Position numbers and translations under genes: made by a program
Shown here: piece after piece, positions 572 through 51,041 of the stretch
Numbering within the stretch: position 1 is the stretch's first letter
Layout: each line of letters starts with the position of its first letter
Notes under the pieces: model-generated
Database searches by the model: none
What the model saw: the letters and a program-made list of their open reading frames with translations, nothing else
Told to the model about the DNA's origin: nothing
Origin: Heptranchias perlo
Taxonomy: Eukaryota
DNA: 64,000 bases
Direction of reading: 5' to 3'
NCBI RefSeq assembly: GCF_035084215.1
Contig: NC_090340.1
Location: 3,968,001-4,032,000, forward strand

Positions 572-853
572 TGCCGCCAACTCCTGTGAAGATTACCCGT
601 CTGCACTCTCCGTCTCTCACACTCCTCTGTACAACGGCCGTTTTTTTCCCCGAGGAGTTAAACCTCACTTGGTATCAAAATGGCTCCAAGATTACATCTG
701 GGATAAACTTGGTGGAAACACGGAGCGAAGATGGATTGTATCAAGTTTCCAGCTCCCTCATCTCTGAGCAGAGTGGGACGGTTTATATCTGCGAGGTGTC
801 CCATGCCTCTCTCCCGGTTCCAGCCAACGCCAGCTACACGGTTCGTGATCCGG
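572..853 (+). CDS. Gene A, Ig C1-set domain exon (leader and V exons presumably upstream of the window)
   Basis: Acceptor ctcctttccAG at 570-571 and donor G|GTAAG at 854; 282 nt, phase 1-1. Translation VPPTPVKITRLHSPSLTLLCTTAVFFPEELNLTWYQNG...DGLYQVSSSL...YICEVSHASLPVPANASYTVRDP has the C1-set hallmarks C-x4-FFP-x6-W and YxCxVxHxSL. Confidence 0.92.
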
Positions 854-1349
854 GTAAGAGACCCACCATCTCACCACTGCAGTAAGCTGTATCTGTATTA
901 CATATAGGAGTGATTCAGGGACTTACAGTGTCAAAAAAGCTTTTGAGGCGGCCCCTCACAGTGCTCATTGTGCAAGAAGGATTCCTCCGCAATTGAACGG
1001 CGGATCCATGTTTGGTTGGGGAATTAATTGCCTTCTCGTTGACAGTGGGTAGACTTTAATAGTTGTGGGACAATGCAGCCAGTCAGGATACGTGGAGGAG
1101 TAACAGAAGTTGGTACTTGCTGGTCAAAATGTTGAAATGAGCCATACTTTCGAAACACAATACCTGACGTAATGCAATGAGCGGGGAAACCCATCTCCAC
1201 TGCCCAGCTCTTCAACTACATGGGCAGGTCCTCCATTGTCTGCTACTAGAGGGGTCCATTAGCGATCGCTGTAAGAATTGCTTTTCTTGATTCATATCAA
1301 TCATCTGGTTGAAGGCGGCCACTAGTTCACTGATGGTACAAATATCTGC

Positions 1350-2115
1350 TGATGTCAGAACCCTTAAGGAGAAAACATTAACAATCGGATCTAGATGCGA
1401 TAGGGGAATGGGCCTGTATCTGGCAGATGACATTTAAAGTAGATAAATGTAGTCTAATGCATGTGGGTGGGTTTAATACCAAACATGTGTGTACAGTGCT
1501 AGGCTCTGAATTAAAGTCTGTTGAGGGGCAAAGAGACATGGGTGTTAGTGTCTGAATCTCTAAATTCCACGACCAAGGCCGAGGGGTGATGACCAAAGCT
1601 AGTAGAATATAAAGATGTATAGCCGGGACAAACCGATAGAAACAAAGAGCACCATAATGTCCTTTCCCTTGAGCAGAACCCATCTGCAATATTGTGTCCA
1701 GTTCTGATTCCCTCATATGGTGAGAGTTATAAGGGCATTGGGGAAAAAGTTCAGCGCAGAGCCACGAGATTGATATTATTTTAAAAACCCTTAGTTATCA
1801 CGATAGGTTCAAGGATTTGGGTATTTGTACTGTCGAAAAGCGTAGACTTCGGGATATTAATTGAACGATGAAGGGACTGGACTGTGTACACGTGGATAGA
1901 TCACTTGAATTAAATTGTTCGCGAGAACGAGGGCTCGTGGGTACATGTCATTTAAGCACAGAATAAGGTTAGATATCTGGAGGATAGTCATCGTCCAGAA
2001 AATCACTGACCTTTGGATTAAGTCGAAGTCTCGTGTGGTGAGTGCGGATTTTCTGCAAAGGTACAAAAGGAGCTGGACGAGTTCCTGAAGGAGGCTGATA
2101 TCGTTGTGTACAAAA
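1350..2115 (+). mobile_element. Old degenerate CR1-like LINE 3' fragment (shared with 31860-32645)
   Basis: Decayed LQSDLD..EWA..WQM.F.VDKC and VQRRAT-like RT C-terminal motifs with stops and frameshifts. Confidence 0.65.
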
Positions 2116-2309
2116 GAAAGTCCCTGTGTGCTTTACACTGCGCTGTACTTTGGCCGTTTGATGCTGAGATACGATGGAGTCGCCTTAGTATCTCGATGAG
2201 AGGCGATAGCTGTGATATGTCGGTGCTGCCTGATATCTGACGTTGATTAAATATTTCGCAATATCTCGCCTACAAAATGCTAAAATTCCAATTTCTCTGT
2301 CCCTCTTAG

Positions 2310-2423
2310 CTAACGGCAACAGTACTTTCCTCTACTCCCTGGTGTCGGGGTGTGCAGCAGGCGGGTTAATAATTCTCGTGCTGGTAATTCTTGTCAAGCG
2401 ATGCAATTTCGTCAGAACTGAAG
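2310..2423 (+). CDS. Gene A, transmembrane exon (uncharged, inhibitory type)
   Basis: Acceptor ctctgtccctcttAG and donor G|GTAAG; 114 nt, phase 1-1. Encodes ANGNSTFLYSLVSGCAAGGLIILVLVILVKRCNFVRTE: a hydrophobic stretch followed by a KR stop-transfer. Confidence 0.88.
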
Positions 2424-3019
2424 GTAAGAACTGACACGATCCTGATTCAGAATTAGGTTTGTTAGTTAAATTTCAGCACGGCGGCAGCGAGGGGGAGGGC
2501 ACGGTGTCTCGGGCCCAGACTGGAATCTATATTTTTGGAGCGGTGTCCGTTACACTAAGTGAGTTTATGTTCCTGGGGCCGAATGTTGTGACGAGGGTCA
2601 GACCTCAAACCCAAGAGATCCCTCAGAATAATTTCAGCAGGTCTGAACATTAAAGCGACCCGTAGTTTCGGTTCGAACTTAGTGCTTTGCAACAACTGAA
2701 GGTGGTGATGTGAATCGTTTACAGTAAATGTAGGGTTGTGTCGGGAGGGGCGACAAATCTGGGGTAAAGGGCGGTGGAACTGGTGGTGGGAATGTGACAC
2801 GTGGTGTTCGGTTGCAAAAGGCTTCGGATCTCGCCCAGCAACAGTACCGTATGTGACGGGTCAAGTTCTAATCAGGAGAATTGAGTGACCGTTCAGATCA
2901 TTTTCTATTGATCGGTGATTCTGATCACTTTGCGGGAATGTTGGGTATATTTTGGCGGACACATCGCGCATCTGGTTCATGGTGAAATTGACATTGGTCT
3001 CAATTTATTTCTCTGCTAG

Positions 3020-3063
3020 ACACGGAGATTAGTGAGGAGAGAACCGGCCACTTCGAGGAGCAG
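3020..3063 (+). CDS. Gene A, short cytoplasmic exon 1
   Basis: Acceptor tttctctgctAG and donor CAG|GTCAGT; 44 nt, phase 1-0; DTEISEERTGHFEEQ. Conserved at 33871-33914, and the phase fits both neighbouring exons. Confidence 0.8.
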
Positions 3064-3595
3064 GTCAGTGTCATGCTTGTGTAACGAGAAATAGACTGCT
3101 ATTGCCATCTAATGCATATTTATACCACATTTAAACCGGTATCACTAGGCCATCAGGACGGCTCTCAATAACTGCGGAGCACAACGTCAACACTTGCGGG
3201 TTTATTGTTCCCCGGAGACCTTCGTTCAGCTGAAAGTGTGGTCTCTGACCTGTCAGTGCCGCGATTGTATCTGTATTATTGCAGCACTCCAATTGTGGCA
3301 GGCGCCGTTGTAGATATTCGTGTCTTGTCAGTGCGGTCGATTGGCTATTCACCTATGGGGAGCGTCATAGTTTTGTTCGATCCTGTTCTCACTTGACATC
3401 TCCACCCATGAACTTTCCAGCAGGGTCTGTGGGTGTTGACTGGGACGGAATGCTGGCCGAGATTGTCCCTATCCTGACACAAAGGCACCGAAACCAATTG
3501 TCCATCTTGAGATGAGCAAGCTCAGAACTCGGAAGTGCGTTAACTACTCAACAGCACACGGGCCAGGCCTTGACACACATTTGTCAATGTATATT

Positions 3596-5348
3596 CTCAA
3601 TGATGGCGGAGTCCAGCACGTGAGTGCAAAAGACAAGGCTGAAGCCTTTGCAACCATCTTCAGCCAGAAGTGCCGAGTGGATAATCCATCTCAGCCTCCT
3701 CCCGATATCCCCACCATCACGGAAGCCAGTCTTCGGCCAATTCGATTCACTCCACGTGATATCAAGAAACGGCTGAGTGCACTGGATACAGCAAAGGCTA
3801 TGGGCCCCGACAACACCCCAGCTGTAGTGCTGAAGACTTGTGCTCCAGAACTAGCTGCGCCTCCAGCCAAGCTGTTCCAGTACAGCTACAACACTGGTAT
3901 CAACCCGACAATGTGGAAAATTGCCCAGGTATGTCCTGTCCACAAAAAGCAGGACAAATCAAATCCGGCCAATTACCGCCCCATCAGTGTACTCTCAATC
4001 ATCAGCAAAGTGATGGAAGGTGTCGTCGACAGTGCGATCAAGCGGCACTTACTCACCAATAACCTGCTCACCGATGCTCAGTTTGGGTTCCGCCAGGACC
4101 ACTCGGCTCCAGACCTCATTACAGCCTTGGTCCAAACATGGACAAAAGAGCTGAATTCCAGAGGTGAGATGAGAGTGACTGCCCTTGACATCAAGGCAGC
4201 ATTTGACCGAGTGTGGCACCAAGGAGCCCTAGTAAAATTGAAGTCAATGGGAATCAGGGGGAAAACTCTCCAGTGGCTGGAGTCATACCTAGCACAAAGG
4301 AAGATGGTAGTGGTTGTTGGAGGCCAAGCATCTCAGCCCCAGGGCATTGCTGCAGGTTTTCCTCAGGGCAGTGTCTGAGGCCCAACCATCTTCATCTGCT
4401 TCATCAATGACCTTCCCTCCATCATAAGGTCAGAAATGGGGATGTTCGCTGATGACTGCACAGTGTTCAATTCCATTCGCAACCCCTCAGATAATGAAGC
4501 AGTCCGAGCCCGCATGCAGCAAGACCTGGACAACATCCAGGCTTGGGCTGATAAGTGGCAAGTAACATTCGCGCCAGATAAGTGCCAGGCAATGACCATC
4601 TCCAACAAGAGAGAGTCTAACCACCTCCCCTTGACATTCAACGGCATTACCATCGCCGAATCCCCCACCATCAACATCCTGGGGGTCACCATTGAAAACA
4701 AACTTAACTGGACCAGCCATATAAATACCGTGGCTACGAGAGCAGGTCAGAGGCTGGGTATTCTGCGGCGAGTGACTCACCTCCTGACTCCCCAAAGCCT
4801 TTCCACCATCTACAAGGCACAAGTCAGGAGTGTGATGGAATACTCTCCACTTGCCTGGATGAGTGCAGCTCCAACAACACTCAAGAAGCTCGACACCATC
4901 CAAGATAAAGCAGCCCGCTTGATTGGCACCCCATCCACCACCCTAAATATTCACTCCCTTCACCACCGGCGCACTGTGGCTGCAGTGTGCACCATCCACA
5001 GGATGCACTGCAGCAACTCGCCATGGCTTCTTCGACAGCACCTCCCAAACCCGCGACCTCTACCACCTAGAAGGACAAGGGCAGCAGGCGCATGGGAACA
5101 ACACCACCTGCACGTTCCCCTCCAAGTCACACACCATCCCGACTTGGAAATATATCGCCGTTCCTTCATTGTCGCTGGGTCAAAATCCTGGAACTCCCTT
5201 CCTAACAGCACTGTGGGAGAACCGTCACCACACGGACTGCAGCGGTTCAAGAAGGCGGCTCACCACCACCTTCTCAAGGGCAATTAGGGATGGGCAATAA
5301 ATGCCGGCCTTGCCAGCGACGCCCACATCCCGTGAACGAATAAAAAAA
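3596..5348 (+). mobile_element. 5'-truncated poly-A-tailed non-LTR retrotransposon ('LINE-B', APE-RT type, clade unresolved), young insertion in a gene A intron
   Basis: RT ORFs 3512-4378 and 4436-5287 (NYRPIS, QFGFR, LDIKAAFDRV, PQGSV, FADD). 3' end ...CCCACATCCCGTGAACGAATAAAAAAA. Absent at the paralogous site near 34470; flanked by TATATT. Confidence 0.93.
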
Positions 5349-5814
5349 TATATATATATTGCAGAGAATTTCTCCGGCTGGGAATTATTTTCCTTCCTTG
5401 TCCTTATCCGGCCTTTTATTACACCGCCAGCGCCATTTCAGCAATCACCTGCACTGATCAGACTTACCCAATCCTTAACCGATGCCATTGGGTTTTAGTG
5501 GCCCTGTACGGTGCTGTTTGTGATTTGATGTGAAGCTAATCTTTCTCCAAAAACTTTCTTCAGGCTGTGGGAGGAAGAGAGGACGGGAGTCCGTCTTACG
5601 CTGCTATCAACTTCAGCGGTCACAGGAACATTGGAAAACCCAGAGGTGAGGAAGATGGAACCGTCTATGCCCAGGTACAGTCGAGAAACGGAGCAGCCCA
5701 TTCCAACCAGGAATGGTCCGGTACTGGCGTCTGACCTCAGTAATGCACATTGAAGTCATAGAACGCTTCGTGTGAGTAACAGATCCTATTGATCTTTCAT
5801 TGTTGCTTCCACAG

Positions 5815-5964
5815 ACCAAGCAAGGGACGGATTGTACACTGACTTACGCGTCTCTGGATCGGACCGGCTCCCAGAAAATGGCAAGAAGGAAACAGAAAGA
5901 AAACGTAGCGGAGTATGCGGCGATCTGGATCAACAAACCAAGGGAAGAATACGGGATTGTATAA
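5815..5964 (+). CDS. Gene A, terminal cytoplasmic exon with ITIM and ITIM/ITSM-like motifs
   Basis: Acceptor tgttgcttccacAG, phase 0. Encodes TKQGTDCTLTYASLDRTGSQKMARRKQKENVAEYAAIWINKPREEYGIV* with TAA at 5962-5964. LTYASL (5839-5856) is a canonical ITIM; AEYAAI (5908-5925) resembles SIRPalpha TEYASI. Confidence 0.88.
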   Translation, partial: TKQGTDCTLTYASLDRTGSQKMARRKQKENVAEYAAIWINKPREEYGIV

Positions 5965-18609: not shown

Positions 18610-18755
18610 CTGACGGTGTAAAATGGTTGATAGCGAATTGGCCGCCCGTTTTACATTGACTTCAATGGAAATAAAAAATGGGGAGAGATGTAAAAAGGGC
18701 TGCCGATTCGATATCAGCCGTTTTAGACTGTCGCTCAAATTTAAATTTACCCCAT
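18610..18755. mobile_element. Palindromic MITE-like element (related copies near 48945-49090, 50190-50338, 51235-51355, 62350-62410 and 63510-63620)
   Basis: Arms GACGGTGTAAAATGGTTGATAGCGAATTGGCCGCCCGTTTTACA and TGTAAAAAGGGCTGCCGATTCGATATCAGCCGTTTTAGACTGTC are imperfect reverse complements; termini resemble GGGGTAGATTTT / AAATCTACCCC. Confidence 0.65.
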
Positions 18756-26861: not shown

Positions 26862-26916
26862 ATGTCTGCACTTGATGTGCTGCTGTACCTCGCAGCCCTG
26901 GCCATTATTTGCACAG
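26862..26916 (+). CDS. Gene B, signal peptide exon
   Basis: ATG 26862; 55 nt; MSALDVLLYLAALAIICT(G)|GT, phase 1; homologous to 46243-46297. Confidence 0.8.
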
Positions 26917-27112
26917 GTTTATTTACACCTGCCTTTTAAATATTTATGTATGAATAACAAGTCCATTAGTAGTATGGAGGCAGCTTCTGTTCAATGTTTA
27001 TTGTAGTTTTCTCGTTTCCTTTCGTTCTACTTCTGCCGCATTATTTCCTCCCTTTTAATCCCCACGATCACTATCCCTGACTATAACCTGTGTTTGTGTT
27101 TATTTCTGACAG

Positions 27113-27434
27113 TTAGTAATGGGACCGCACCCGCACGTCAGGTCCCTGTCCGCCTGACTCCGGTGAAAGGTACAAATGTCTCCATGTATTGCTATGTCCC
27201 TCTTTTCGATCGCAACGCATTGGTGGATGTTTACTGGCGGAGAGCCGGCCAGGACGGGATTTTGGACTCGAGTGCAGACAAAAGGAAAACAGTTATGCCA
27301 TTCAAGAAAGGATCTGCCGAGTGAGTTTCACCTGCTGAATGGAGGTTTCCAGGACTCTGGAGTCTATTATTGCAGCATGAGAGATTGGAGAGGAAAGTTT
27401 TCCAACGGGAATGGGACTGAGCTTATTGTGAATG
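27113..27434 (+). pseudogene. Gene B, VJ-type Ig V exon, frameshifted
   Basis: 322 nt against 321 nt in gene C (one codon fewer plus a 4-bp duplication). The two supplied ORFs 27094-27324 and 27176-27448 give the two halves: ...YCYVP...VYWRR... and ...FQDSGVYYC...GNGTELIV. Confidence 0.88.
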
Positions 27435-27714
27435 GTGAGTGTCGCTGATGGGTTAATGAACCTTCGTAAAATTCTATGAGTATTGATTAGAGAATATTTA
27501 ACAAAGATCAGCAATGTTTCGTTTTCTGACAGGACTTTTGATGTTTCTCTCAGTTCGGTTCGGTGCGGCTCCTTTCCCCCTATTTGCAGTGAATCCTGTG
27601 AGTTTACACAGAGCAGCACCGATTACCCTGCTCGGGGCAGTGGAATTCAGATTATCTGACTTCAGTCAATTGTTGTTCTCTTATCCCGTATCATTTATAT
27701 AAATCTATTTTATA

Positions 27715-28335
27715 TTTTATCATTGATTCTCGGCATGTGGACATCGCTGGCACGGTCGGCATTTATTGTCCATTACTCGTTGCCAAGATGGCGGTGGGTC
27801 TTCTCCTTGAACCACTGCAGTCCATGTAGTGAAGGTGCTCCCACAGTGCTGTTAGGTAGACAGTTTCAGGATTTTGACGAAGTGATGATAATGCAATGGC
27901 CATATATGTCCAAGTGAGGATGACGTGTGACTTGGAGTGGGTGAACTTGGAGGTGATAGTGTTCCCATGCACCTGCTGCCCTTATCCTTCTCGGTAGTGG
28001 AGGCCTCGGGTTTGGGAGTTGCTGTCGAAGAAGCCTTGGCGAGTTTCTGCAGTGCATCCTGTAGATGGTGCATACTGCAGCCACTGCGCGCCGGTGGTGG
28101 ACGTAATATAAAGTGATGGAATAAGTGCCGATCAAGCAGACTGTTTTTGTTCAGGATATTGTCGAGCTTCTTGAATGTTGTTGCAGCTGTGCCATCCAGG
28201 CAAGTGGAAAATATTCCATCAAACTTCTGACTTGTCGGTGGTGGTGCCTCTTTGGGAAGTTCGGTGGTGAGTCAGTCGCCGAGGAATAACCAGCGTCCGA
28301 CCTGCTCGAGGAGCGGCAGCATTTATGTGGCCATT
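27715..28335 (-). mobile_element. Older LINE-B 3' fragment in the gene B V-C1 intron
   Basis: HHRRAVAAVCTIYRMHC.NSPRLLRQ; absent from the matching gene C intron near 47060. Confidence 0.82.
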
Positions 28336-31028
28336 TATATCACATATTTACAAATCGAAAGAGTTGAATGAGATTGTTTGTGTTTATTTTTATACCGAGA
28401 TCGAATAAGAAAAAAGTGTCGTTGACTCTGAATAGGGTTCTGCCTGGAATCACATCCTTCAATCCTCCAATCACTGAGGGGCCGCTCCCGACCCACCTTT
28501 TACCGCACTCCGAAGTCCAACAGGAACTTTCCCCGAATGCCTGGCAATTCAAACGTGGGACACAACAGTGAGATTTTCAGTATCTATTAACAAATAGATA
28601 CAAGTACTAACACACTGACAGATATAAAGGACAGGGCGGGGGCGCTGGAGGGGAGCCTGTGAATACAAGGAGCTAGCAAAGAAATATCAACTGGACAGAG
28701 AGGATTGACAGGCTAAACACTGAATAACATTTTACTGCATAAAATAATAGATTTTATTTACACATTGGATTCATTGTGGTTGCTAATAGATTTTATTTTC
28801 AGTGATATATAAATTTGCTCTGATAGATTTGATTTCGATTGATAGATTTGTTTATAAGGGAAATAGATTTAGATTTTGACAGGTGGGAATGGTTTTTTCA
28901 AGCATTGGATAAGGAACATTTATATGAAACAGAACGAAACTCCGTGCCACGAAGTCTGTGAGTGGATCATCTGCTGTTCAAGCTCAGTCTGTGTCTCCTG
29001 TAAGATCTCGGCGGTGAAGGCAAAGTATCTCCCATGGATCCCAGTTCCAGAGTGGGAATCGTGGTTCAAAAAAGGGATGGGGCAAATGTTTTGGAAGACA
29101 CATTAGTGACACAAGATCATCGAAGGAAAAGAAGTTAACAAGGATCTGTAATCACCTGCAGGTCACGTGGAGATAACTTTCTCACTGGGGAGTGATGACA
29201 TTTAGTGGATCTACCAATTGTTGAGATGCAGTTTTGGATGCAGACGTAGGTACTTCTATGACCGGAATGGGATCACTAACATATATCTCGAAAAAATTCT
29301 GGATTAATTACATTTTGAACTCGGGGCTGAAATATTCCTGATCAAGCAGTTAGTGACTGATGAGTTTACAGTTCTCACCGAGCGACAGGTTAGTTGAGGG
29401 GAGGGGGGAGCTGTGGGCATCTGAGTGGAGTTGAGCTCCTGAAAATCAAATACCAGATTATGAATGGGGATTTTAATCGATGTAAGTGCAGTAGTCGAGT
29501 GTTGAATAGGATGGAGATAAAGTTAATACGAACATTGAATAATTACTCCCGCAATTCTAATATCAAACTGTGACCTCGTCAGTCTGCAGTTCTAACAAAC
29601 AGCACGAGGTTCGGGATTATTCTCAGATGAGGAATTATTGATAAACCGAACAAGATAAAGTGACATGGAAAGAGAGAAGACAAGGAGCGAGTGTGTGGGA
29701 GGGTTGGGAGGAGTGAAAAATAGAGAAGGATTGGACCTTGATCATTTTTTAAATATGATCGATTGGCCCATGGATGAGGCAGATAGATAATGGGGTTTAG
29801 GATCGAGCGGTATTCCAGATTTGCCTAATTTAAAGCCATTGACTAGGCCACAGTAGGAGCAGTGCGCGAAATTTTGATGTGAAGGAGCGGGTGCAAGATT
29901 TATTTACTTGGTGATTTCAGTCCGAGATCCCCTGAATCAAAATAAATTAAATGGAGACCCAATAGATGGGATCTGCGGCGAGTCCCACTAGTGATCAAGG
30001 GGAATAAATGTAGAAAGAGTAAGAGGAGGTTAGAACATTTATTTTACTCAAAGGGTTATTAGAGCGTGGGGTAGATCGGCAGAAGGGTTATTGAAGGAAA
30101 TCAAACACAGGGATTAGGGGGGAATTACATTAATATTAAGGCGCGGGGAAGGCAGGGGACTGGACTGAGGTAGAGAGCTCTTTCTGAGATTAAACATTGG
30201 TAATTTAACCGGAAAGTAAATAGACACGGAACACCGAGACAGTAAAATTCAGGGAGACTCTGCCGATGAATGGGTCACAGATGCGCCAGCAAGGCTCCGA
30301 GTCGAGAGCGGAGATCCGTCGACTTACTTGATCCTTAAGAAGCGGTGGAGACGGATCTCTGTAACTGCAGAATATTGGGAGGTTGGTAAATTTGATCCTA
30401 CTTTGGCCCCTCTCCCTTTTAATTCGTGATATCGGAAACGAACGAAGTCTTGAAATAATTCACGCAGAGCGAGAACCGGGGTCAGGACCGGAACATTATC
30501 TGGGAAATGAATCGAGTGAGTGAGCTCTGGTACAGGACAACTGCACGCGTTTTGTACCGAAACAACGAGTCCCAGACTGGAACAGAGACAATAATTTCTT
30601 TTATGCTTTTGTATTAATTTATCACTCTGTCAGTGAAACCATATTATAGAATACTCTCTCCCTATTAGCAACGCAGAAGTCTATTTAGAACGTTGGTCTA
30701 AATCACAGTGAAACACCAGCAGAAATAGACACCGGGAGAGTTTAGAGATCCCACGGGACGGGTTCGGTTTAACTCGGACTTAAATTAATTTCAGTGCCCA
30801 GACATGGGGCCTTCCCGTCACCGAGTGCTGGATAAAGACAAGAACGAAATAAATATCGCCATGTACTGTTTCAAGCAAATCAAGCGTTCGTTATTAATTC
30901 GAATATGGCGGTAAAATTTCCCTCTTAAAGGGACTCTGCAACTGCTCCATGCTCTCCCTTCTCGCCGTCTGTTCTTTCCTTTCTCGAATTTAATATATTT
31001 CAACTCAATTCCTTTAACTCCTTTCCAG

Positions 31029-31307
31029 TGCCGCCAACTCCTGTGAAGATTACCCGCCTGCTCTCTCCGTCTCTCATACTCTGTTCAACGGCTGTTTTTT
31101 TCCCCGAGGAGTTCAACCTCACTTGGTATGAAAATGACTCCAAAATTACATTTGGGATAAACTTGGTGGAAACACGGAGCGAAGAGGGATTGTATCAAGT
31201 GTCCAGCTTCCTCATCTCTGTGCAGAGCGGGACGGTTTATATCTGCCGGGTGTCCCATGCCTCTCTCCCGGCTCCAGCCAACGCGAGCTACACGGTTCGT
31301 GATCCGG
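31029..31307 (+). CDS. Gene B, C1-set exon
   Basis: 279 nt, phase 1-1, one codon shorter than in genes A and C; donor GTACG; both Cys and the Trp are retained. Confidence 0.85.
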
Positions 31308-33158
31308 GTACGAGACCCTCCTCAGCACTGCAATAAGCTGTATCTGTATTACATATAGGAGCCATTCAGGGACTTTCTTTCACCACCAATCCGCATCAGA
31401 TCATTTTCTATGCAGTGTGTTTTAAGGGGACTGAATGTGCTCATTGCAGTGTCAAAAAGCTTTTGAGGCGGCCCCTCACAGTGGTCACTATGCAAGATGG
31501 AGTCCTGCGCAATTGAATGGCGGATTCTTCTTTGGTTGGGGAATTAATTGCATTCTCATTGATGGAGGGTAGACATTAATAGTTGTGGGACAATGCGGCC
31601 AGTCAGGATACATGGAGGACTAAGAGAAGTTGGTAGTTGCTGGTCAAAATGTTAAAATGAACCATAATTTCGAAACACAGTATCTGACGTAATGCAATGA
31701 GCGGGGAAACCCATTTCCACTGCCCAGCTCTTCAACTGCATGGGCAGGTCCTCCATTGTCTGCTACTGGAGGGGTCCATTAGGGATCGGTGTAAGGATTG
31801 CTCTTCTTGATTAATATCAATGATCTGGATTAAGGCGTCCACAAGTTCAATGATGGTACAAATATCTGTGCTGACGCCAGAACCCTTAAGGAGAAAACAT
31901 TTGCAATCGGATCTAGATGCGACAGGTGAATGGGCCTGTATCTGGCAGATGACAATTGATGTAGATAAATGTAGTCAAATGCTTGTGGGTATGTTTAATA
32001 CCAAGCATTGTGCACAGTGCTAGGCTCTGAATTAAAGTCTGTTGAGGGTCAAAGATTAATGGGTGATGGTGTCTGAATCCCTAAAGTTCCACGACCAAGG
32101 CCGAGAAATGATGACGAAATCAATTCGAGTATAAAGATGTATAGTCGGGACAAACCAATAGAAACAAAGAGCACCATAATGTTCTTTCCCATGGTCAGCC
32201 CTCATCTGCAATATTATATCCAGTTCTGATTCCCTCATGTTGTGAGAGTTATAGGGGCATTGGAGAAAAAGTTCTGCGCAGAGCCACAAGATTGATACTA
32301 TTTTAAAAACCTTTAGTTATCACGACAGGTTCAAGGATTTGGGTATTTTTACTCTAGAAAAGCGTAGACTTCTGGATACTGAATTGAACGATGAAGGGAG
32401 TAGACAGTGTACACGTGGATAGATCACTTGAATTAAATTATGAGCGAGAACGAGGGCTCTTGGGTACATGTCATTTAAGCACAGAACACGGTTAGATATC
32501 TGGAGGATAGTCTTCATCCAGAAGGTCACTGACCTTTGGATTAAGTCGAAGTCTCGTGCAGTGAGTGCGGATTCTCTGCAAAGTTACAAACGGAGCTGGA
32601 CGAGTTCCTGAAGGAGGCTGATATCGTTGTGTACAAAAGATAGGTGTGATGTTGCATGACGTCCCTCAAGGTCAATGTTATTTACTGGAACTCGTTTCTC
32701 ATCACCTTCGGGTCGGAGAGAAATCTCCTATAATTCTGTGGGGGATTTTGACTCTCCCTGGAGACCAATCGGCACAAACAATCACGGGGAGAGAGACAGA
32801 CAGACACATCCATACAAAAAGACACCGCCACCTCCACCACCCCCCTCCCCCACCCCCCACCCACACACACACAAATATTTACATACACATGATGAACAAA
32901 ACTGCATAATCATTAATTAAATACAATTATTAATCCGAATTAAATGCTGATATTATCAGAAATGGAAAGTCCCTGTGTGCTTTACACTGCGCTGTACTTT
33001 GGCCGTTTGATGCTGAGATACGATGGAGTCGCCTTGGTATCTCGGTAAGAGACAATAGCTGTGATATGTCGGTGCTGCCTGATATCTGACGTTGATTAAA
33101 TATTTCGCAATATCTCGCCTATAAAATGCTGAAATTCCAATTTCTCTGTCCCTTTCAG

Positions 33159-33272
33159 CGAACGGGAACAGTACTTTCCTCTACTCCCTGGTGTCGGGGT
33201 GTGCAGCAGGCGGGTTAATAATTCTAGTGCTGGTAATTCTTGTCAAGCGATGCAATTTAGTCAGAATTGACG
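33159..33272 (+). CDS. Gene B, TM exon (uncharged)
   Basis: 114 nt; ANGNSTFLYSLVSGCAAGGLIILVLVILVKRCNLVRID; AG/GT intact. Confidence 0.85.
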
Positions 33273-33870
33273 GTAAGAACTGACACGATCCTCATTAAGA
33301 ATTAGGTTTGTTAGTTACATTTCAGCTCGGCGGCAGCGAGGAGGACGGGACGGCGTATACGGCCTGGACTGGGATCTAGATTTTGGGAGCGATGTCCGTT
33401 ACACTAAGTGAGTTTATGTTCCTGGGGCCGAATGTTGTGACGAGGGCCAGACCTTAAACCCAAGAGATCCCTCAGAATAATTTCAGCAGGTCTGAACATT
33501 AAAGCGACCCGTAGTTTCGGTTTGAACTTAGTGCTTCACAACAACTGAAGGCGGTGATGTGAATATTTTACAGTAAATGTAGGGTTGTGTCGGGAGGGGC
33601 GACAAATCTGGGGTCGAGGGCGGTGGAACTGGTGGTGGGAATGTGACACGTGGTGTTCGGTTGAAAAAAGGGTCCGTTTCTCGCCCAGCAATCGTACCGG
33701 ATGTGACGGCTCAAGTTCTAATAAGGAGAATTGAGTGACCGTTCAGACCATTTTCTATTGATCGGTGATTCTGGTCAATTTTGCGGGAATGTTGGGTATA
33801 TTTTGGGGGGAAAATCACGTATCTGGTTCATGTGAAATTGATCATTGTTCTAAATTTATTTCTCTACCAG

Positions 33871-33914
33871 ACACGGAGATTAGTGAGGAGAGACCCGGCC
33901 ACTTCGAGGAGCAG
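33871..33914 (+). CDS. Gene B, cytoplasmic exon 1
   Basis: 44 nt; DTEISEERPGHFEEQ; splice sites intact. Confidence 0.78.
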
Positions 33915-34927
33915 GTCAGTGTCATACTAGTGTAACAAGAAATAGACTGCTGTTGCTCAAGTAATGCAAATTTATACCACATTTATACCGGTATCACGAG
34001 GACATCAGGACGGCTCTCAGTAACTGCGGAGCACACCGTCACCACTTGCGGGTTTATTGTTCCCCAGAGACCATCCCTCCACTGAAAGTGTAGTCTCTGA
34101 CCTGTCAGTGCCGCGATTATATCTGTATTAATGTAGCCCTCCATTTCTCGCAGGCGCTGTTGTCGATATTTATGCCTTGTCAGTGAGGTCGATTGGCTGT
34201 TCATCTATGGGGAGCGTCATAGTTTTGCTCGATCCTGTTCTCAGCTGACATCTCCACCCATGACCTTTCCAGCAGGGTCTCTGGGTGTTGACCGGGACTG
34301 ACTGCTGGCCGAGATTGCCCCCCTCCTGACCCAAAGGCACCGAAACCAATTGTCCATCCTGAGATGAGCAAGCTCAGAACTCGGAAGTGCTTTAATTACT
34401 CAATAGCACACGGGCCAGTCCTTGACCCACAGGCCAGGCTGAGCTCTGATAAAATGGTCTGTAAATGTATATTGAAGAGAATTTCTCCGGCTGGGAATTA
34501 TTTTCCTCCCTTGTCCTTATCCGGCCTTTTATTACACCGCCAGCTCCATTAGAGCAATCACCTGCACTGATCAGACTTACCCAATCCTTAACCGATGCCA
34601 TTGGGTTTTAGTGGCCCTGTACGGTGCTGTTTGTGATTTGATGTCGAGTTAATCTTTCTCCAAAAACTCTCTTCTGGCTGTGGGAGGAAGAGCGGACGGG
34701 AGTCCGTCTTACGCTGCTATCAACCTCAGCGGTCACGGGAGCATTGGAAAACCCAGACGTGAGGAAAATAGAAACGTCTATGCCCAGGTACAGTCGAGAA
34801 ACGGAGCAGCCCATTCCAATCAGGACTGGTCCAGTCCTTCCGTCTGACCTCAGTAATGCACATTGAAGTACTGGAACGCTTAGTGTGAGTAACATATCCT
34901 ATTGATCTTTCAGTGTTGCTTCCACAG

Positions 34928-35077
34928 ACCAAGCAAGAGACGGATTTTGCACTGACTTCCGCGTCTCTGGATCTGACCGGCTCCCAGGAACTGGCAAGAA
35001 GGAAACAGAAAGAAAACCTAGCGGAGTATGCGGCGATCAGGATCAACAAGCCAAGGGAAGAATACGGGATTGTATAA
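34928..35077 (+). CDS. Gene B, terminal cytoplasmic exon (first ITIM lost)
   Basis: TKQETDFALTSASLDLTGSQELARRKQKENLAEYAAIRINKPREEYGIV*; TAA 35075-35077. Confidence 0.83.
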   Translation, partial: TKQETDFALTSASLDLTGSQELARRKQKENLAEYAAIRINKPREEYGIV

Positions 35078-35473
35078 ACAGCAGCAAATGTCCAGTGATG
35101 TTAAAGTCACACGGGGGATGGCCATCTTGGTGCCTGAAGAACACACCTACTTGTATTTTTCGGTGTGTTTGGAAACCGGATTGTCATTTATTGGAATGGG
35201 AGGAGTAGCAGCTTTTACTGGCAGAGAGAAACAGCGATCTGGAGGCTGCGTTTATTCTTGAAATCTGCACTTCCAGTGAATGGAGGAGTCAATGCTTAAC
35301 TCTTTTATAGGTTTCAAATGGGACCAAAGGAAATTGGAGCGTCTTGTCTCGTTGGGGGAAATCGATGAGGCCAGTTATTGTGGGTCAGTTCTGTTAATTT
35401 AGAAGGATTGAGCAATGGAGTTTATTTTGGGCATGTGTCGCGAATATACCGGAATTCGAGGAGGGTTCTGAAT

Positions 35474-36540
35474 CATAGAATCATAGAATCATAGAAGTTA
35501 CAACATGGAAACAGGCCCTTCGGCCCAACATGTCCATGTCGCCCAGTTTATACCACTAAGCTAGTCCCAATTGCCTGCACTTGACCCATATCCCTCTATA
35601 CCCATCTTACCCATGTAACTGTCCAAATGCTTTTTAAAAGACAAAATTGTACCCGCCTCTACTACTGCCTCTGGCAGCTCGTTCCAGACACTCACCACCC
35701 TTTGAGTGAAAAAATTGCCCCTCTGGACCCTTTTGTATCTCTCCCCTCTCACCTTAAATCTATGCCCCCTCGTTATAGACTCCCCTACCTTTGGGAAAAT
35801 ATTTTGACTATCGACCTTATCTATGCCCCTCATTATTTTATAGACTTCTATAAGATCACCCCTTAACCTCCTACTCTCCAGGGAAAAAAGTCCCAGTCTG
35901 TCTAACCTCTCCCTGTAAGTCAAACCATCAAGTCCCGGTAGCATCATAGTAAATCTTTTCTGCACTCTTTCTAGTTTAATAATATCCTTTCTATAATAGG
36001 GTGACCAGAACTCTACACAGTACTCCAAGTGTGGCCTCACCAATGCCCTGTACAACTTCAACAAGACATCCCAACTCCTGTATTCAATGTTCTGACCAAT
36101 GAAACCAAGCATGCCGAATGCCTTCTTCACCACCCTATCCACCTGTGACTCCACTTTCAAGGAGCTATGAATCTGTACTCCTAGATCTCTTTGTTCTATA
36201 ACTCTCCCCAACGCCCTACCATTAACGGAGTAGGTCCTGGCCCGATTCGATCTACCAAAATGCATCACCTCACATTTATCTAAATTAAACTCCATCTGCC
36301 ATTCATCGGCCCACTGGCCCAATTTATCAAGATCCCGTTGCAATCCCAGATAACCTTCTTCACTGTCCACAATGCCACCAATCTTGGTGTCATCTGCAAA
36401 CTTACTAACCATGCCTCCTAAATTCTCATCCAGATCATTAATATAAATAACAAATAACAGCGGACCCAGCACCGATCCCTGAGGCACACCGCTGGACACA
36501 GGCATCCAGTTTGAAAAACAACCCTCTACAACCACCCTCT
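35474..36540 (-). mobile_element. Young CR1 LINE inserted 3' of gene B
   Basis: 324-aa open RT frame and (CATAGAAT)n tail; the empty site GGTTCTGAATGTATTCCATC is at about 6355-6375. Confidence 0.95.
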
Positions 36541-36894
36541 GTATTACATCTAAATATTAAATCATTATCAGGCTCCTAACGGGCCAACTGAATGGTGTTT
36601 GGTGACTGGACATAAATTACCGCGGCCCTTTCTGTGCAGAAACAACTATTCCTTCAGTTTCCTTTAATGAAATTCACACTTTCAACGTTGAGAATTCCTT
36701 TCTGTCCCGATTTTGCTCTTTCTGGATGTATTTGACACTTTAAATCAAATCTGTCCGTGTGCCGAACATTTCCATCTCTGGGTATTTTAATTACTCAGTT
36801 TGCCTCTTGTCACAGGAATGAACCAGAAGTTTTCGAATGTGCAGTGGGACAGGTCTGGGACCTACTCCGGCTCCCTGCCTCACTGTGAAATTCA

Positions 36895-38640
36895 GAATTA
36901 CAAAGATTAAATAGAATTTACAGCATCGAAACAGGCCATTCGACCCCATTAATCTGTACTGGTGTTTATGCTTCACACGAGCCTCTTGCCATCCTACTTC
37001 ATCTAACGCTATGAGCAGATCGTTCTATTCCTTTCTCCCTTGTGTACTTATCTTGCTTCCCTGAAATGCATCTACGCTATTCGCCTCAACTGCTCCACGT
37101 GGTATCAAGTTCACATTCTAATCACTCTGGGTAAAGAAGTTTCTCCTGAATTCTTTCTTGGATTTATTAGTGACTATCTTATATTTATGGCCCTTAGTAT
37201 TGGACTGCCCCGCAAGTGGAAACATTTTCTCTAAGCCTACACTTTCTTACCACTTCACAATTTTAAATTCTTCTATTAACAGCAAAGTGGGAGAACCTTC
37301 ACCCACGGACTGCAGCGGTTTAAGAAGGCGGATTACCATCACCGGATCAAGGGCAATTAGGGATTGGCAATAAATGCTGGCCTTGCCTGCGACACCCACA
37401 TCCCATGAATGAACAAAAAAAAAAGGTCACACCTCATCCTTCTCATTTCTAGAGAAAAGAGCCCCAGCCATTCATTCTTTCCTGATACTTAGAACCTCTC
37501 AGTCCTAGTATCATCCTTGTCAATCTTTTTTGCAACTTTTCCAATGCCTCTATATCCTTTTTGTAGTATAGTGGCCAAAACACAGTATGGTCTAACCAAC
37601 GTTCTATAAAAGTTTAACATAACTTCCCTGCTATTCAATTCTATCCTTCTAGAAATGAACCCCAGTGCATAGTTTGCATTGTTATGGCCTTGTAAACTAA
37701 CGTTGCTATTTTTAGTGATTTGTGAATGTGTTACCCCAGACCTCTTTTCTCCTGCATCACATTTGGACTCTTATTTCCCAAGGAGTATGCGGCCTCCTTA
37801 TTCTAACTACTTTAGCACCTCACACTTAGCTATCCTAAAATTCTTTCGCTATTTACACGCTCATTCTGCAAGATTTTTAGCGTCTTCCTGGATTTTGTTG
37901 CAGTCTTGTTTAGTATTAACGAAACCCCACAATTTTAAAATTGTATTTCCGATTCCTGAATTCCAATCATTCATAAAAATAGTGAACAACAGTGGTCCCA
38001 GCACCGATCCCTTTGGAACACCACTTCCCAGCTTCCGTCAGTCTGACTAACTCTCTTTATCCCCTACTCTCTGTGTTCTGTTTTGTAGCCAGCTTGCTAT
38101 CCATTTTAATTCTTGTCCCGACTCCACATGCTCTGTCCTTAGTCATGACTTTACCATGTGGTAACTCATCGAAGTCCGTTTGAAAATCCAAGTATACTAC
38201 ATCTACTACATTACCCTTGTCTACTCTTTCTGTTACTTCTTCAATGAATTCAATAAGGTTGGACAACCATGACCTTCCCTTTTGAAATCCGTATTGACTA
38301 TTCTTCATTATATTTTCGGTTTCTAGATATATTTCTATTGCATCTTTGAGTAAAGATTATCTATCCTACTACCGATGAAAAGCCAACTGGTCGGTAGTTC
38401 CCCGGATTTGCTCTTTCGCTTTTTTAAATGTAGGTATAAAATTAACTGTCATCCAGTCCTCTGGCGCTATACCGTTTTCTAACGAATATTTATAAATATA
38501 TAATAGTGCCTCTCTGATCTGTTCCCTGGCTTCTTTTAGTTCGCACGGATATCATGCATCCAGACCAAGGGTTTTAGACTCTCTAAGTTTAATTGGTTTA
38601 TCAATCATCTCCCCCTTTCCTACCTTAAATGTCTTGATAT
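36895..38640 (-). mobile_element. Degenerate CR1 with nested LINE-B 3' fragment (37278-37424)
   Basis: Paralog of 6717-8299, so it was inserted before the duplication. Confidence 0.82.
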
Positions 38641-45370: not shown

Positions 45371-46242
45371 GCATTCAGTCTGAATTGTTCCAATTTACCG
45401 AGGTATCTATGATTTTATGGTGTCCTGAGTGTCCTGACTATCTTCTCACCTCCTGACAAACTCTGAATCCAGTCATTAGCGCCAAGAAGTCGAACCTTCG
45501 GAAAAGTTAGCAAATGGGGACTAAATCTTGAGAACCATTGTTTATCATTACTGTTTAGACTCAATTTCATAACTTCTATGAACGTGGCTGGTGTCCAGAG
45601 AGCCCATCAATTTCAACAACCAAGTTCTGTTGAATGTCATGAGTATTTTCTCCAGTCGGTGTGTACCTGCCTCGGTACAAAGGGACCCGTGTAATCAAAA
45701 ATGCAATTTTCTGCCGATTTTTCCCCTCCAGAAAGCCGGGATTTTGGATCAATTGTACCGAACGATCCAAGCTCAGGTCAGCCAACTCAGAACAGAGTCG
45801 GGTTCGAACGATGCGAACTTCAGCTCTGTGTGGTTCAGTACTTCACCACGCAATAAATGGGGACAGAGCGAAAGAGCCAGATACAGACCGCATTCACGAC
45901 ACCTGCACATGCGTATCTGCAACAGGTTTGCCAGCGATGCGATAAGTGAAGCGCTGTTGCAATTAGAAACTTTTCACGTAATTCAAAATAGTTCCATTTT
46001 CCCGCGGTCACCAATGAGATCTGGGTCATTGTAACTTTCAGCGTGTTGTCACATCTCCGTCCGCATACCTGCCATAAAAGTGAACCGGTTCATTGAAGCT
46101 ATTGCCTCAGATAACTTGTGGAGCGCCTGACTGTAACACTCAGTCCCAGATTATCTTCACCATCTCTCGATGTCCTGCACCCTTCAGTGTTTCCCGCTGA
46201 CTTACAGCAAACAAGTGATCGACTTCATCGCTGTTGCTCAGA

Positions 46243-46297
46243 ATGTCTACACGTGATGTGTTGCGATACCTCTCAGCTCTGGCCATTATTTGCACAG
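46243..46297 (+). CDS. Gene C, leader exon
   Basis: ATG 46243; MSTRDVLRYLSALAIICT(G)|GT; 55 nt, phase 1. An Arg lies at the start of the hydrophobic core, so the signal peptide is weaker than in gene B. Confidence 0.75.
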
Positions 46298-46497
46298 GTT
46301 TATTTATGTATACCTATCTGTTAAGTGGGAAAACGTGAATAAAAAGTCAATTCGCATTGTGGAGGCAGCTTCTCTTCAATGTTTATTGCAATTTTCTCAT
46401 TTCCTTTCGTTCTACTTCTGCCGCATTATTTCCTCCCTTTTGATCCCCACGATCACTATCCCTGACTATAACCTGTGTTTGTGTTTATTTCTGACAG

Positions 46498-46818
46498 TTA
46501 TTAATGGGACCGCTCTCACAGTGCTTCAGCTCCCTGCCCGCCTGACTCCGGTGAAAGGTACAAATGTATCCATTTATTGCTCTTTCCCGCTTTTCGATCG
46601 CAACGCATTGGTGGATGTTTACTGGCGGAGAGCCGGCCAGGACGGGATTTTGGATTCGAGTGTAGACAAAAGGAAAACATTTATACCATTCAAGAAAGGA
46701 TCTGCCGAGTTTCACCTGCTGAATGTAGGTTTCCAGGACTCTGGAGTCTATTATTGCAGCATGAGAGATTGGAGAGGAAAGATTTCCAACGGGAATGGGA
46801 CTGAGCTTATTGTGTATG
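46498..46818 (+). CDS. Gene C, intact VJ-type Ig V-set exon (SIRP/NKp30-like)
   Basis: 321 nt, phase 1-1, AG...GTGAGT. VINGTALTVLQLPARLTPVKGTNVSIYCSFPLFDRNALVDVYWRRAGQDG...AEFHLLNVGFQDSGVYYCSMRDWRGKISNGNGTELIVY has the B-strand Cys, C-strand Trp, DSGVYYC and a germline-joined GxGT-x-L-x-V J-like strand. Confidence 0.92.
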
Positions 46819-47489
46819 GTGAGTGTCGCTGAGGGTTAATGAACCTTCGTAAAATTTTATGAGTATAGATTAGAGAATATTTAACAAAGATCAGCAATGC
46901 ATTTTCTCTCAGTTCGGTTCGGTGCGCCTCTTTTCCCCCTATTTAGTTGTTAGTTTACACAGAGCAGCACCGATTACCCTGCACGGGTCAGTGGAATTCA
47001 GATTGTCTGATTTCAGTCAATCGTTGCTCTCTTATCCGGTATAATTTACTTAAATCTGTTTCACATCACATATTTACAAATAGAAACTGTTGAGTAACTC
47101 TTCTGTTTACTTTTAAACAATTATCGATAAAGCAAGGGGTGTATTAGACTCTGAACCGCATCCAGTCTGGCATCACTTCTTTCAATCTCGACCCGCCTTT
47201 TACCGACATTCCGGAGTCCATGGACATTTCCCGAGGGCCTGATGATTCAAACCTGGGATCCAGCAGTGAAATTGTCAGTAACTTTTCGTACATAGATGCA
47301 AGTATTACACAGAGACAGGGGAATAGGACTGAGAGGAGCACAGCAAATCCAGGAGATAACCATAAAATAATCAACCGGACAGAGATGAGTGACAGGGTAA
47401 CGCTGAATAAAATTGTACTGCATAAAATTCGAGATTGTACGTCCACTAACTTTAAATTTTTTTTACACCTATATATTTTTTTAAACGCA

Positions 47490-47870
47490 TAGATTTATTT
47501 ACACTGATTATAGATTGTACTCTCACTGAGAGATTTAATTACACTGATTATAGATTTCACTCATACGGATAGATTTTTATACTTATTATAGGATTTCACT
47601 TACACGGATAGATTTATTTACACTGATTATAGATTTCACTTACGCGGATAGATTTATTTACACTGATTATAGATTTCATTTACACGGATAGATTATAGAT
47701 TTCACTTACACAGATAGATTTGTTTACACTAATTATAGAATTCAGTTGCACTGAGAGATTTATTTACACTGCTTATAGATTTCACTTACACGGATATATT
47801 TATTTACACTGATTACAGAATTCAGTTACACTGATAGATTTATTTATACTGATTATAGATTTTACTTACG
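47490..47870. repeat. 40-bp minisatellite (TAGATTTATTTACACTGATTATAGATTTCACTTACACGGA), about 9 units
   Basis: GATTTATTTA recurs at 47611 and 47651; the unit is a dimer of about 20-bp TAGATTT subunits. Confidence 0.88.
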
Positions 47871-50759
47871 GAATGTAATCCTGTAATCTTGTCGGACAAG
47901 GCTGGACTTCTGATGTCCACTTGAGGCACTTTATCCAAACTGTGGATCTGTTCCAAATACAATAGACCTGGTCAGTAAAAAGCTCCACCTTTAAAATTGA
48001 TAATTTTTAATTCGACACCAGAAGGTTAGAGACGAGATTGCAATTGAGAATCTGAAGAAGGGGGAATGGGGTTTTCAAACATGGGATAAGGAACATTTCC
48101 ATAAAATAGATATAAATCCATACCGCGCGGCCCATGCGTGGATCATCTCCTGTCCCAATTCAGTCTGTGTTTCGAATAGTATCTCGGCGGGAAAGCCGAA
48201 GTATTTCCCATGGATCCCAGTGTCAGTGTGGGAATCATGTTTGAAATGAGGGATGGAGCAGGGGTTTCGGAGGACAAATTCATGAAACGAGATCACCTAA
48301 GGAAAAGGAGTTAACAAACGCGAGTAACCATCTGAGATGAGAGGGTCTGCAATTAAAAGATGGAAATATCTTCCGCGCCCTTTGGTGGGGTGGGGGGGTG
48401 GTGTTTACTGGAAAATACCAGTTGCTGGGATGCTGTTTGGGATGTAGTCGGAGACACAGTTCAGGCAGGTATGAGATCACTGTCAGGCAGTTAGGAACAT
48501 TGATCGAAGAAGAAGGTTTTGAACTCGGGGTGAAATATTGCCTGAAAAACCAGAGTTAGTGACTGATGGGTTTACATTTCTAAACGAACAGAAGGTTTGT
48601 TTACGGGGGACGGGGGGGGGGGGCTTTATCTGAGGCCGGCAACCAACGGAGCTCCTGAACATAGGAGCTGGATTTTTTATGGGGATTTTAACAGTTATGA
48701 GCGGGAATATCAGCGTTGAGGTAGAATTAAGGTAAAGTGAACAGTTACCGTACGGAAAGCGAATGATTACTCCGTCAGTTCCAAAATCCAACTATGACCT
48801 GGTCGATCTGATGGAGATTGGAATGACCTAAAAAAACTAAAGTTCTCACAAGCGGTCTATGGTCTTGGGGTAATTCTCAAAAGTTAAAACTCCTCAATTA
48901 AATGAGAGAATAAAATGTCAAAGTAAAAAAGAAAGTAGACAAAGGGCAGATCTTGACTTTGTGCGATAGTGTGAAACAACTGTTGGGAGTCGGCGGCTAT
49001 GGAAATCAAAATGGGGAGAGATGTAAAACGGGCTGCCGATTCGCTATCACCTCTTTCATACTATGGCAGAAAATCAAGATCAACCTCAAGAAGCGGGTCT
49101 GTGGGAGGATTGGGATGAGCAATATCTGATACGGTTACATGCGGTGGACCCTGATCCGTCCCACAGGGGTCTGTACTGGACCAGTAGACCCAGTAGAAAT
49201 ACACTTTAATTCTGATCATTTATTATTCAAAGAGCCTCCACAGGAGGCGAGCCTATCGGGATAATGGGATTCAGAGTGGGGTTGGATTCTAATTTTCCCA
49301 TTAACAAACCGTTGACTAGCCCACAGCCGAGGAGTCAGTGTCAGTGTGAGTGTTCCTTTAGAGAAAGACCATTAATTCTAAGGAGAAAATGCAAAGCGAA
49401 TTCAGTGACATGATCCGAGGGATGAGAGAAGATGATTATCTACTGATCTGTTTAGGAGAAACAATGGGTCATAAACTTAGAATCAGATCTTGAAACAGAA
49501 AGGTGAAGGGAGAAGATTCATCTTCACTCCACGGTTGATTAGAGTATGGAATTGATCGGCGCACGAGGCTACCGAAGAGAATCAAAGACAAGGTTTCGGG
49601 GAGAATTCGACCAACAGTTGAAGAAAAATGCATGGAGAAAGGAAAGGGAAAGGATTGGGGTAGAGGGCTGGGAGCTGGACTGTGGCGGCCCGGGCACGTT
49701 GCCTCCGACTGTGCTTAACTTTCTATGAATTCACTCGAAAACAAGGAGGATAAACGAGACAGGCAATCCGAGCGAGGCGGGGCTTCGGGGGTACCCAGCT
49801 TATCCCGATCAAGATATGGGTTAAACATAGGCCATTTCACAGGGTCAGATTTCTGCCCACAATCCCGCCCCTCAAGGCTCCCAGTCGGGAGCGCAGTCTC
49901 CCTGAATTGACTTGTTCCCAAAGATGTCATTGAAACGGATCTCTGTTACAGCAGAATCTCCGCCTTATCCGTCATATTTGTGAGCTGGTTATTTTGATAT
50001 GATTTGGCCGCCACATCGATCTGCAAATTGTACCTGAACAAGAGCGAAGTGTTGAAGTCATTCATACAGATCGACTACAGGCGTCAGGACCTGATTATCT
50101 CGGAAATGAACCGAGTGTGTGAGCTCTGGTATCGGACAGCCTCACCGCTGTTAGACACTGACAACAATTCCAAGACTGGAACGGAGACAATGGGTGATAG
50201 CGAATCGGCAGCCTGTTTTACATCTCTTCCGATTTTTATTTGCATTGAAGTCAGTGGAATGAAAAATCGGGAAATTTAAACGGGAAGTGGATTCGCTATC
50301 ACCCGTTTTACACAATCACACGGTCAAAATCTACTCCAATTACTTTTCGTATTGTTCTATTAAGTTAACACGCAGTCTGTGAACCCATATTAGTGAAGGT
50401 AATGTCTCCCTGTTAGTGACTCTGAAGCCTATTTAAAACCGAATGTGCAAGTCACAGTGAATCACCTGCAGAAATAGGCACGGGTTCTGTTGAACTTGGA
50501 CATTAACTTTCAATGCCCAGACATGGGGGCCTTCCCGTTTACCGAGTCTTGGATCAAGACAAGAACGAAATAAATATCACTATTCACTGTTTTGATCAAA
50601 ACAGCCATTCGTTATGAATTCTAATATGGCGGTAAAATTTCCCTTTTAAAGGGACTCTGCAGATGCTCCATGCTCTCCCTTCTCGCCGTCTGTTCTTTCC
50701 TTTCTCTAATATAATATACGAGTAGTGATTTCAACTCAACTCCTTTAACTCCTTTCCAG

Positions 50760-51041
50760 TGCCGCCAACTCCTGTGAACATTACCCGCCTGCTCTCTCCG
50801 TCTCTCACACTCCTCTGTACAACAGCTGTTTTTTTCCCCGAGGAGTTGAACCTCACTTGGTATCAAAATGGCTCCGAAATTACATCTGGGATAAACACGG
50901 TGCAGACACGGAGCGAAGAGGGATTGTATCAAGTTTCCAGCTCCCTCATCTCTGTGCAGAGCAGGACGGTTTATATCTGCCGGGTGTCCCATGCCTCTCT
51001 CCCGGCTCCAGCCAACGCCAGCGACACGGTTCATGATCCGG
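50760..51041 (+). CDS. Gene C, C1-set exon
   Basis: 282 nt, phase 1-1, donor GTAAG; VPPTPVNITRLLSPSLTLLCTTAVFFPEELNLTWYQNG...YICRVSHASLPAPANASDTVHDP. Confidence 0.9.

Follow-up and report, generated by a model that had tools for sequence, protein, structure and literature searches.

The activating form of the natural killer (NK) cell receptor NKp30 carries an Arg in its transmembrane (TM) segment, and PRARP has the layout V-C1. In both, the V domain and its J-type G strand form a joined, non-rearranging VJ unit. According to PMC11599192, the genes with a joined VJ include CD79, NITR, SIRP, CD8, NKp30 and PRARP, and the feature is thus no rarity by itself. The elasmobranch genes UrIg and UrIg2 also combine a single-exon VJ with C1-set domains, and the available sections of PMC12227049 describe them as disulfide homodimers linked to the major histocompatibility complex (MHC) or to immunoglobulin (Ig) and T-cell receptor (TCR) loci, with no mention there of an immunoreceptor tyrosine-based inhibitory motif (ITIM). 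SIRP has been dated to the tetrapods, according to the accessible text of a 2026 survey (PMC13262535), and paired activating and inhibitory receptors are poorly known in sharks. Here we describe gene C, found in a stretch of 64,000 nucleotides (the window) from Heptranchias perlo (contig NC_090340.1, positions 3,968,001 to 4,032,000). Gene C is an intact, non-rearranging VJ-C1-transmembrane gene, and its features suggest that it is probably an activating member of a family of paired receptors in cartilaginous fish.

Exon plan and product of gene C

Gene C lies on the plus strand and consists of five exons, the leader and TM exons having been located by mapping homologues onto the window. The leader exon, which contains the ATG (46243..46297, 55 nt, phase 1), ends in a GT donor, and paralogue contigs splice from the same position. 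The VJ domain occupies a single exon (46498..46818, 321 nt, phase 1, AG..GT; Pfam V-set E=2.5e-8), followed by the only C1-set exon (50760..51041, 282 nt, phase 1, AG..GT; Pfam C1-set E=1.9e-12). The TM exon (53776..53890) encodes a helix with Arg232 near its outer end and Asp-His at its inner end. A final coding exon (56022..56090), with an AG acceptor, encodes a short Tyr-free tail and the stop codon, completing a product of 280 amino acids. The 3' untranslated region (UTR) extends to about 56700, and tandem repeat arrays lie within the introns at 47444-47870 and 54100-55440. The preliminary description of this locus had placed the VJ and C1 exons exactly, including the J-type G strand within the V exon, and the Pfam scan bore out both domains; it had missed the other three exons and both further copies in the window. 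The SIRP-alpha G strand that it had quoted for comparison is present in the 2wng alignment. A six-frame hidden Markov model (HMM) scan detected no second C1 exon in any of the genes, and paralogue contigs join C1 straight to the TM exon. The idea that gene C might be a SIRP with an overlooked second C1 therefore fails.

The V core is formed by Cys46, Trp61 and Cys105, and the G-x-G motif of the G strand bears an N-glycosylation sequon. Cys residues occur only at positions 17, 46, 105, 145, 199 and 231, none of them between C1 and the start of the TM segment. Recombination signal sequences (RSS) were sought on both strands using the RSS consensus, with spacers of 11-13 and 22-24 and with 10 base shuffles as controls. 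The best match within 46200-47300 has 5 mismatches and neither V exon has an RSS-like site nearby, which agrees with the earlier report of no heptamer or nonamer at the V 3' end. Across the whole window there are two sites with at most 3 mismatches (both with 3, near 60 kb; 1-7 in the shuffles), while sites with at most 4 mismatches number 42 against 7-21 in the shuffles, none of them at either V exon.

Contigs from three runs of one sample, classed as RNA by the tool's guess, contain the splice joints leader to V, V to C1 and C1 to TM, as well as a V-to-TM skip. Contigs 795 and 862 nt long span 53775-53890, and those of the same lengths continue at 56020-56700, corresponding to the last exon and 3' UTR. 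The leader-to-V joint uses an acceptor 9 nt upstream, which in gene C reads AT instead of AG. At 17 of 325 V letters the contigs depart from the window, and at all 11 changed V positions they have the residues of the paralogue P0002. What they establish is therefore how a close paralogue or allele is spliced, not expression of gene C; no contig carrying gene C's own V letters over a long stretch was found among them, and no RNA data set is listed for this stretch of DNA. The C1-skipping joint (46813>53775) is matched by proteins from several species (P0008, P0029, P0030, P0087 and P0129), giving single-V receptors with an NKp30-like layout.

Family members in cartilaginous fish and predicted signalling

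A profile search returned 35 named proteins, all from a shark, ray or chimaera. An exhaustive search gave 95 clusters (50% identity, E<=1e-30), a few of which are long multi-domain non-members; among 30 of its proteins looked up by name, the family-level ones all belong to cartilaginous fish. The preliminary expectation of a family of non-rearranging VJ-C1 genes in this lineage is thus supported in sharks, rays and chimaera. Named members share one chromosome length per species (e.g. 66,547,297 in H. perlo and 198,790,641 in catshark), and the TM exon type of gene C recurs in ray, bamboo shark and catshark proteins. The genes are already modelled in RefSeq, so the novelty lies in recognising the family and not in the sequences. 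No paper describing it was found in the open literature; subscription journals fell mostly outside the search, and a description may be in print.

The 204 proteins gathered contain 123 at family level (isoforms included). A strict ITIM tail is present in 48 of these and an Arg-type TM segment in 14 (flagged in 15, with P0034 removed as a false flag); 31 are of other types, 14 lack a TM segment and 15 end at the Ig domain. The species with named Arg forms are sevengill shark, bamboo shark, catshark and devil ray. An Arg form stands beside an ITIM form in each of four distinct ectodomain groups: the V tree joins gene C with P0001 (98/99), P0023 with P0015 (100/99) and P0053 with P0036 (92/53), and another tree places P0061 with P0047 (100/97). 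The V domain of gene C is 96% identical to that of the ITIM-tailed P0001. Such pairing, repeated in four ectodomain groups, is the signature of paired receptors, and the family is, judged from its sequences, one of paired activating and inhibitory receptors.

Receptors with a TM Arg include NKp30, NKp46, Fc-alpha-RI and LILRA. By analogy with these, Arg232 would likely recruit an adaptor of the FcR-gamma or CD3-zeta type with an ITAM (immunoreceptor tyrosine-based activation motif), making gene C probably an activating receptor. Inhibitory members would resemble the neighbouring gene A, which has a plain TM segment and an ITIM-type tail with four Tyr motifs spaced 23/13/23; these motifs may recruit SHP-1 or SHP-2 to produce inhibition. 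The V domain likely binds its ligand as a monomer, with C1 serving as a stalk. By analogy with other paired receptors, among them the SIRP pairs described in PMC12975943, the likeliest ligand logic is one of self markers and decoys: inhibitory members would recognise a marker of self, and the activating ones, almost identical to them, would act as decoys against microbes imitating that marker.

Certain observations weigh against this reading of gene C. The context of its leader donor is weak (GTTTAT), and Cys231, the neighbour of the TM Arg, might allow disulfide-linked dimers. The contigs, being those of a paralogue or allele in one sample, say nothing on gene C's own expression. There is also no excess of amino-acid change, with a V pN/pS of 0.84 (Fisher p=0.77) and a C1 dN/dS of 0.66, each from a single pair only.

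The window contains three tandem copies, one of them broken, a record of copy birth and death. Gene A is an inhibitory form whose 3' part lies at 572..5964 on the plus strand (C1 572-853, TM 2310-2423, tail 3020-3063, 5564-5674 and 5815-5964, all AG..GT), its leader and V exons being upstream of the window. By eye, its translation is that of the H. perlo RefSeq model P0004 from C1 to the stop. Gene B (26862..35077, plus strand) is a pseudogene of the inhibitory form, with leader 26862-26916, V 27113-27434, C1 31029-31307, TM 33159-33272 and tail exons 33871-33914, 34677-34787 and 34928-35077. It has a frameshift with a stop in V, one acceptor reading TG, and has lost its ITIM Tyr residues. A segmental duplication relates 923-8299 to 31444-38448 at 88-92% identity, indicating that genes A and B are recent copies. 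On the minus strand, 17827-18613 is an inverted copy of the gene C TM exon and its flanks (70-78% identical), which is open but Arg-less, with His in its place and CT instead of the donor dinucleotide. A V or C1 exon to go with it was not found on the minus strand, and it is an orphan remnant of an activating gene. The remaining window, read by eye, is mostly fragments of reverse transcriptase resembling long interspersed nuclear elements (LINEs) and simple repeats. Gene C could itself be a silent or decaying duplicate inside a functional cluster, as the lack of a contig matching its V letters, the gene B pseudogene and the orphan TM exon at 18 kb might suggest. All five of its exons are open, however, and its core residues and splice dinucleotides are intact; decay is a rather remote prospect.

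V-domain structure and ancestry

Across 62 family V domains, G-x-G is preceded by Asn in 45 and by F/W in none, and a glycosylation sequon lies within the last 14 residues in 53. Gln occupies the V-V pairing position in only 9, and is replaced by Ala in gene C. The F/W-free J motif, scarcity of pairing Gln and terminal sequon all argue against V pairing of the Ig/TCR type. The spacing from Trp to the second Cys, measured in 60 of the 62, is 38-45 (median 43), compared with 50-53 in three SIRP V domains.

Phylogenetic trees were built with 16-25 family proteins; NKp30, PRARP, TCR and Ig light chains stood outside the sample. The labels UrIg-like and B7-H6-like are our own, assigned from motifs, and some B7-H6-like proteins carry SIRP-like database names. 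The family forms one clade in the V tree and in joined trees (97/96 and 98/96 in the latter), and a weak one for C1 alone (65/94), where a long-branch Ig pair intrudes. It stands apart from a SIRP clade with bird, lizard, coelacanth and lungfish members (100/99), from the UrIg-like proteins (100/100) and from the B7-H6-like proteins. The approximately unbiased (AU) test rejects nesting of gene C within SIRP (p-AU 5e-5). It allows the family to group with SIRP (0.21 and 0.31), with UrIg-like proteins (0.23) or with coelacanth V-C1 genes (0.18-0.29). A separate VJ-C1 lineage has a little better than an even chance; a sister relation to SIRP falls a little short of one.

A model of P0002 from a 74-sequence alignment has high confidence (predicted local distance difference test, pLDDT, 90.9) and contains V, C1 and a TM helix; after the C strand (58-63), the next assigned strand is 78-83. 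A model from a shallow alignment was poor (pLDDT 47.8) and was not used. The structure model and Foldseek search proposed in the preliminary description thus yielded a confident V and C1 fold but no choice between families, because the scores are ties. Tied best single-domain matches include skate VNAR (Z 14.8, root-mean-square deviation (rmsd) 1.9, 99 aligned), with SIRP-gamma (Z 13.4), UrIg2 (13.4) and NKp30 (Z 13.3, rmsd 2.4, 101 aligned) close by; the top VIA rows span Z 13.2-15.3. A viral fold library gave generic Ig folds only, a V-only profile against the PDB was dominated by contactin, titin and PD-L1, and an atlas search returned generic V-set clusters.

The Foldseek top rows, light chains and TCR beta, together with a B7-H6 match (Z 14.9, rmsd 4.3, 190 aligned) and RefSeq names that include CD276, NCR3LG1 and tapasin-related, might suggest a germline-joined Ig light chain, a TCR chain or a B7-H6/tapasin-like ligand. 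Identity to the matched chains is only 17-23%, however, and the B7-H6-like proteins split off at 98/98. The RefSeq names differ between near-identical paralogues and are therefore best-hit labels. Ig light chains have no TM segment and end in an interchain Cys, whereas gene C has a TM exon, spliced to C1 in the paralogue contigs, only the six Cys residues given above and no F/W in its J motif. The TM and tail anatomy and the trees contradict this reading, including the germline-joined light chain for which the preliminary description had allowed, and leave it exceedingly improbable.

The mechanism proposed above would be the same if the family were a true cartilaginous-fish co-orthologue of SIRP, ancestrally V-C1, with C1 domains added in bony vertebrates. 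This possibility, which concerns ancestry and is compatible with paired function, comes close to an even chance without reaching it. Tyr motifs are spaced 23/13-14/23 in the family, 24/17/26 in bird SIRP-alpha and 23/15/26 in lungfish, and a family tail HMM scores SIRP tails at 47.5-49.7 bits, a level reached by 0-1 of 200 motif-preserving shuffles. The family+SIRP grouping is not rejected (p-AU 0.21), the lungfish SIRP-like activating form P0116 likewise has a TM Arg, and among the 30 proteins looked up no V-C1-C1 SIRP-type protein is named from cartilaginous fish. Two turtle ITIM tails, however, also beat the shuffle control (1 of 200), so the extra tail likeness is not SIRP-specific. Family and SIRP never join in the best trees, the Trp-to-Cys spacings do not overlap, and V identity is 24-25% to SIRP against 31 and 35% to two coelacanth V-C1 genes. 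Coelacanth, moreover, holds both V-C1-C1 SIRP and V-C1 genes.

The preliminary description favoured a surviving relative of the VJ-C1 gene into which the RAG transposon moved, near UrIg, PRARP and NKp30. The exact VJ-C1 layout, phase-1 exons and lack of RSS stand; pre-RAG kinship is neither shown nor rejected by the trees. In the best tree the family falls on the same side as the UrIg-like proteins and the two coelacanth V-C1 genes, with support of only 69/51 (60/49 in another run), and the family+UrIg-like grouping is allowed (p-AU 0.23). UrIg2 is among the top PDB sequence matches, although such scores sum over several domains. Against this kinship stand the absence of F/W before G-x-G, the few pairing Gln, and the short V without V-V pairing residues, while the TM segments and innate-type tails are those of a paired receptor. 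Linkage, judged through catshark and chimaera gene IDs in published lists, also speaks against it. The MHC chromosome gene list does not include LOC119970986, a catshark member, and the list for the MHC-paralogue-9/14 scaffold lacks the IDs of three chimaera members (both PMC10751288 supplement). The antigen-receptor-complex (Ig/TCR) IDs in table S1 of PMC12227049, as far as that source is available, fall in other ID ranges. Pre-RAG kinship is thus unlikely, and its probability is no higher than that of a sister relation to SIRP. It is similarly doubtful that the family is its own ancient jawed-vertebrate VJ-C1 lineage, kept in coelacanth, expanded in cartilaginous fish to supply their main paired NK/myeloid receptors, and closer than any other living signalling-type gene to the two-domain VJ-C1 form that preceded UrIg, Ig and TCR.

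Two Latimeria V-C1-TM genes (P0196/P0135 and P0138) lie on different contigs and apart from the coelacanth V-C1-C1 SIRP. They may represent PRARP or kin of the family among bony vertebrates; P0138 groups weakly as its sister (92/61, 88/71), and in a search with P0196 the only hit among 856 candidates was P0196. Turtle and lizard proteins P0131, P0101, P0152 and P0154 have tandem short VJ-type domains and ITIM tails, and score up to 64 bits on the family V profile against 19-31 bits for SIRP V. Lungfish P0116 is a SIRP-like C1-C1-C1 protein with its TM Arg near the outer end.

The large V-C1 cluster, common to sharks, rays and chimaera, supplies named genes that are candidates for roles in self-recognition and in NK/myeloid control within the most ancient lineage to possess Ig, TCR and MHC. 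If the family is a true SIRP sister, SIRP-type checkpoints would reach back to the jawed-vertebrate ancestor and would have begun as V-C1. If not, it would add one more VJ-C1 lineage without rearrangement, to be compared with UrIg as a model of the precursor.

Comparison with known receptor systems

To our knowledge, neither NITR nor MDIR carries a C1-set domain. Both are, like the present family, multigene activating and inhibitory Ig receptors of fishes, set beside it here by description only: the teleost NITR has a joined VJ (PMC11599192, accessible part) and the skate MDIR resembles CD300/TREM/pIgR (PMC3031540, accessible part). PRARP is likewise a non-rearranging VJ gene but is described as lying within the MHC (both as cited in the available text of PMC10751288). 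UrIg and UrIg2 share the elasmobranch setting and the single-exon VJ followed by C1, but have three and nine or more C1 domains, respectively (PMC12227049, available sections), compared with one here. NKp30 and shark NCR3 resemble the family in their non-rearranging VJ domain and in the TM Arg of the activating form. They differ in lacking its C1 domain and ITIM partners, though V-to-TM skip forms exist in the family, and in the location of NCR3 genes on the MHC chromosome (PMC10751288 supplement), where the catshark family member is not found.

SIRP-alpha and SIRP-beta share with the family a tandem cluster and an ectodomain of joined VJ-type V and C1-set domains. In both, the inhibitory form (here the gene A type) carries four Tyr motifs, similarly spaced, and its activating counterpart (here gene C) combines a short tail with a basic residue in the TM segment. 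The family differs in having one C1 domain instead of two and a V domain about 8 residues shorter, and V, C1 and joined trees each set it apart as a clade of its own. The TM residue of mammalian SIRP-beta is Lys, in contrast to the family's Arg near the outer end of the helix. DAP12 is the partner of mammalian SIRP-beta (PMC12975943, available part), whereas an FcR-gamma or CD3-zeta type adaptor is predicted for gene C. The family therefore likely consists of one-C1, short-V paired receptors that work like SIRP pairs, distinct from Ig light chains, TCR, UrIg and any SIRP with a missed C1.

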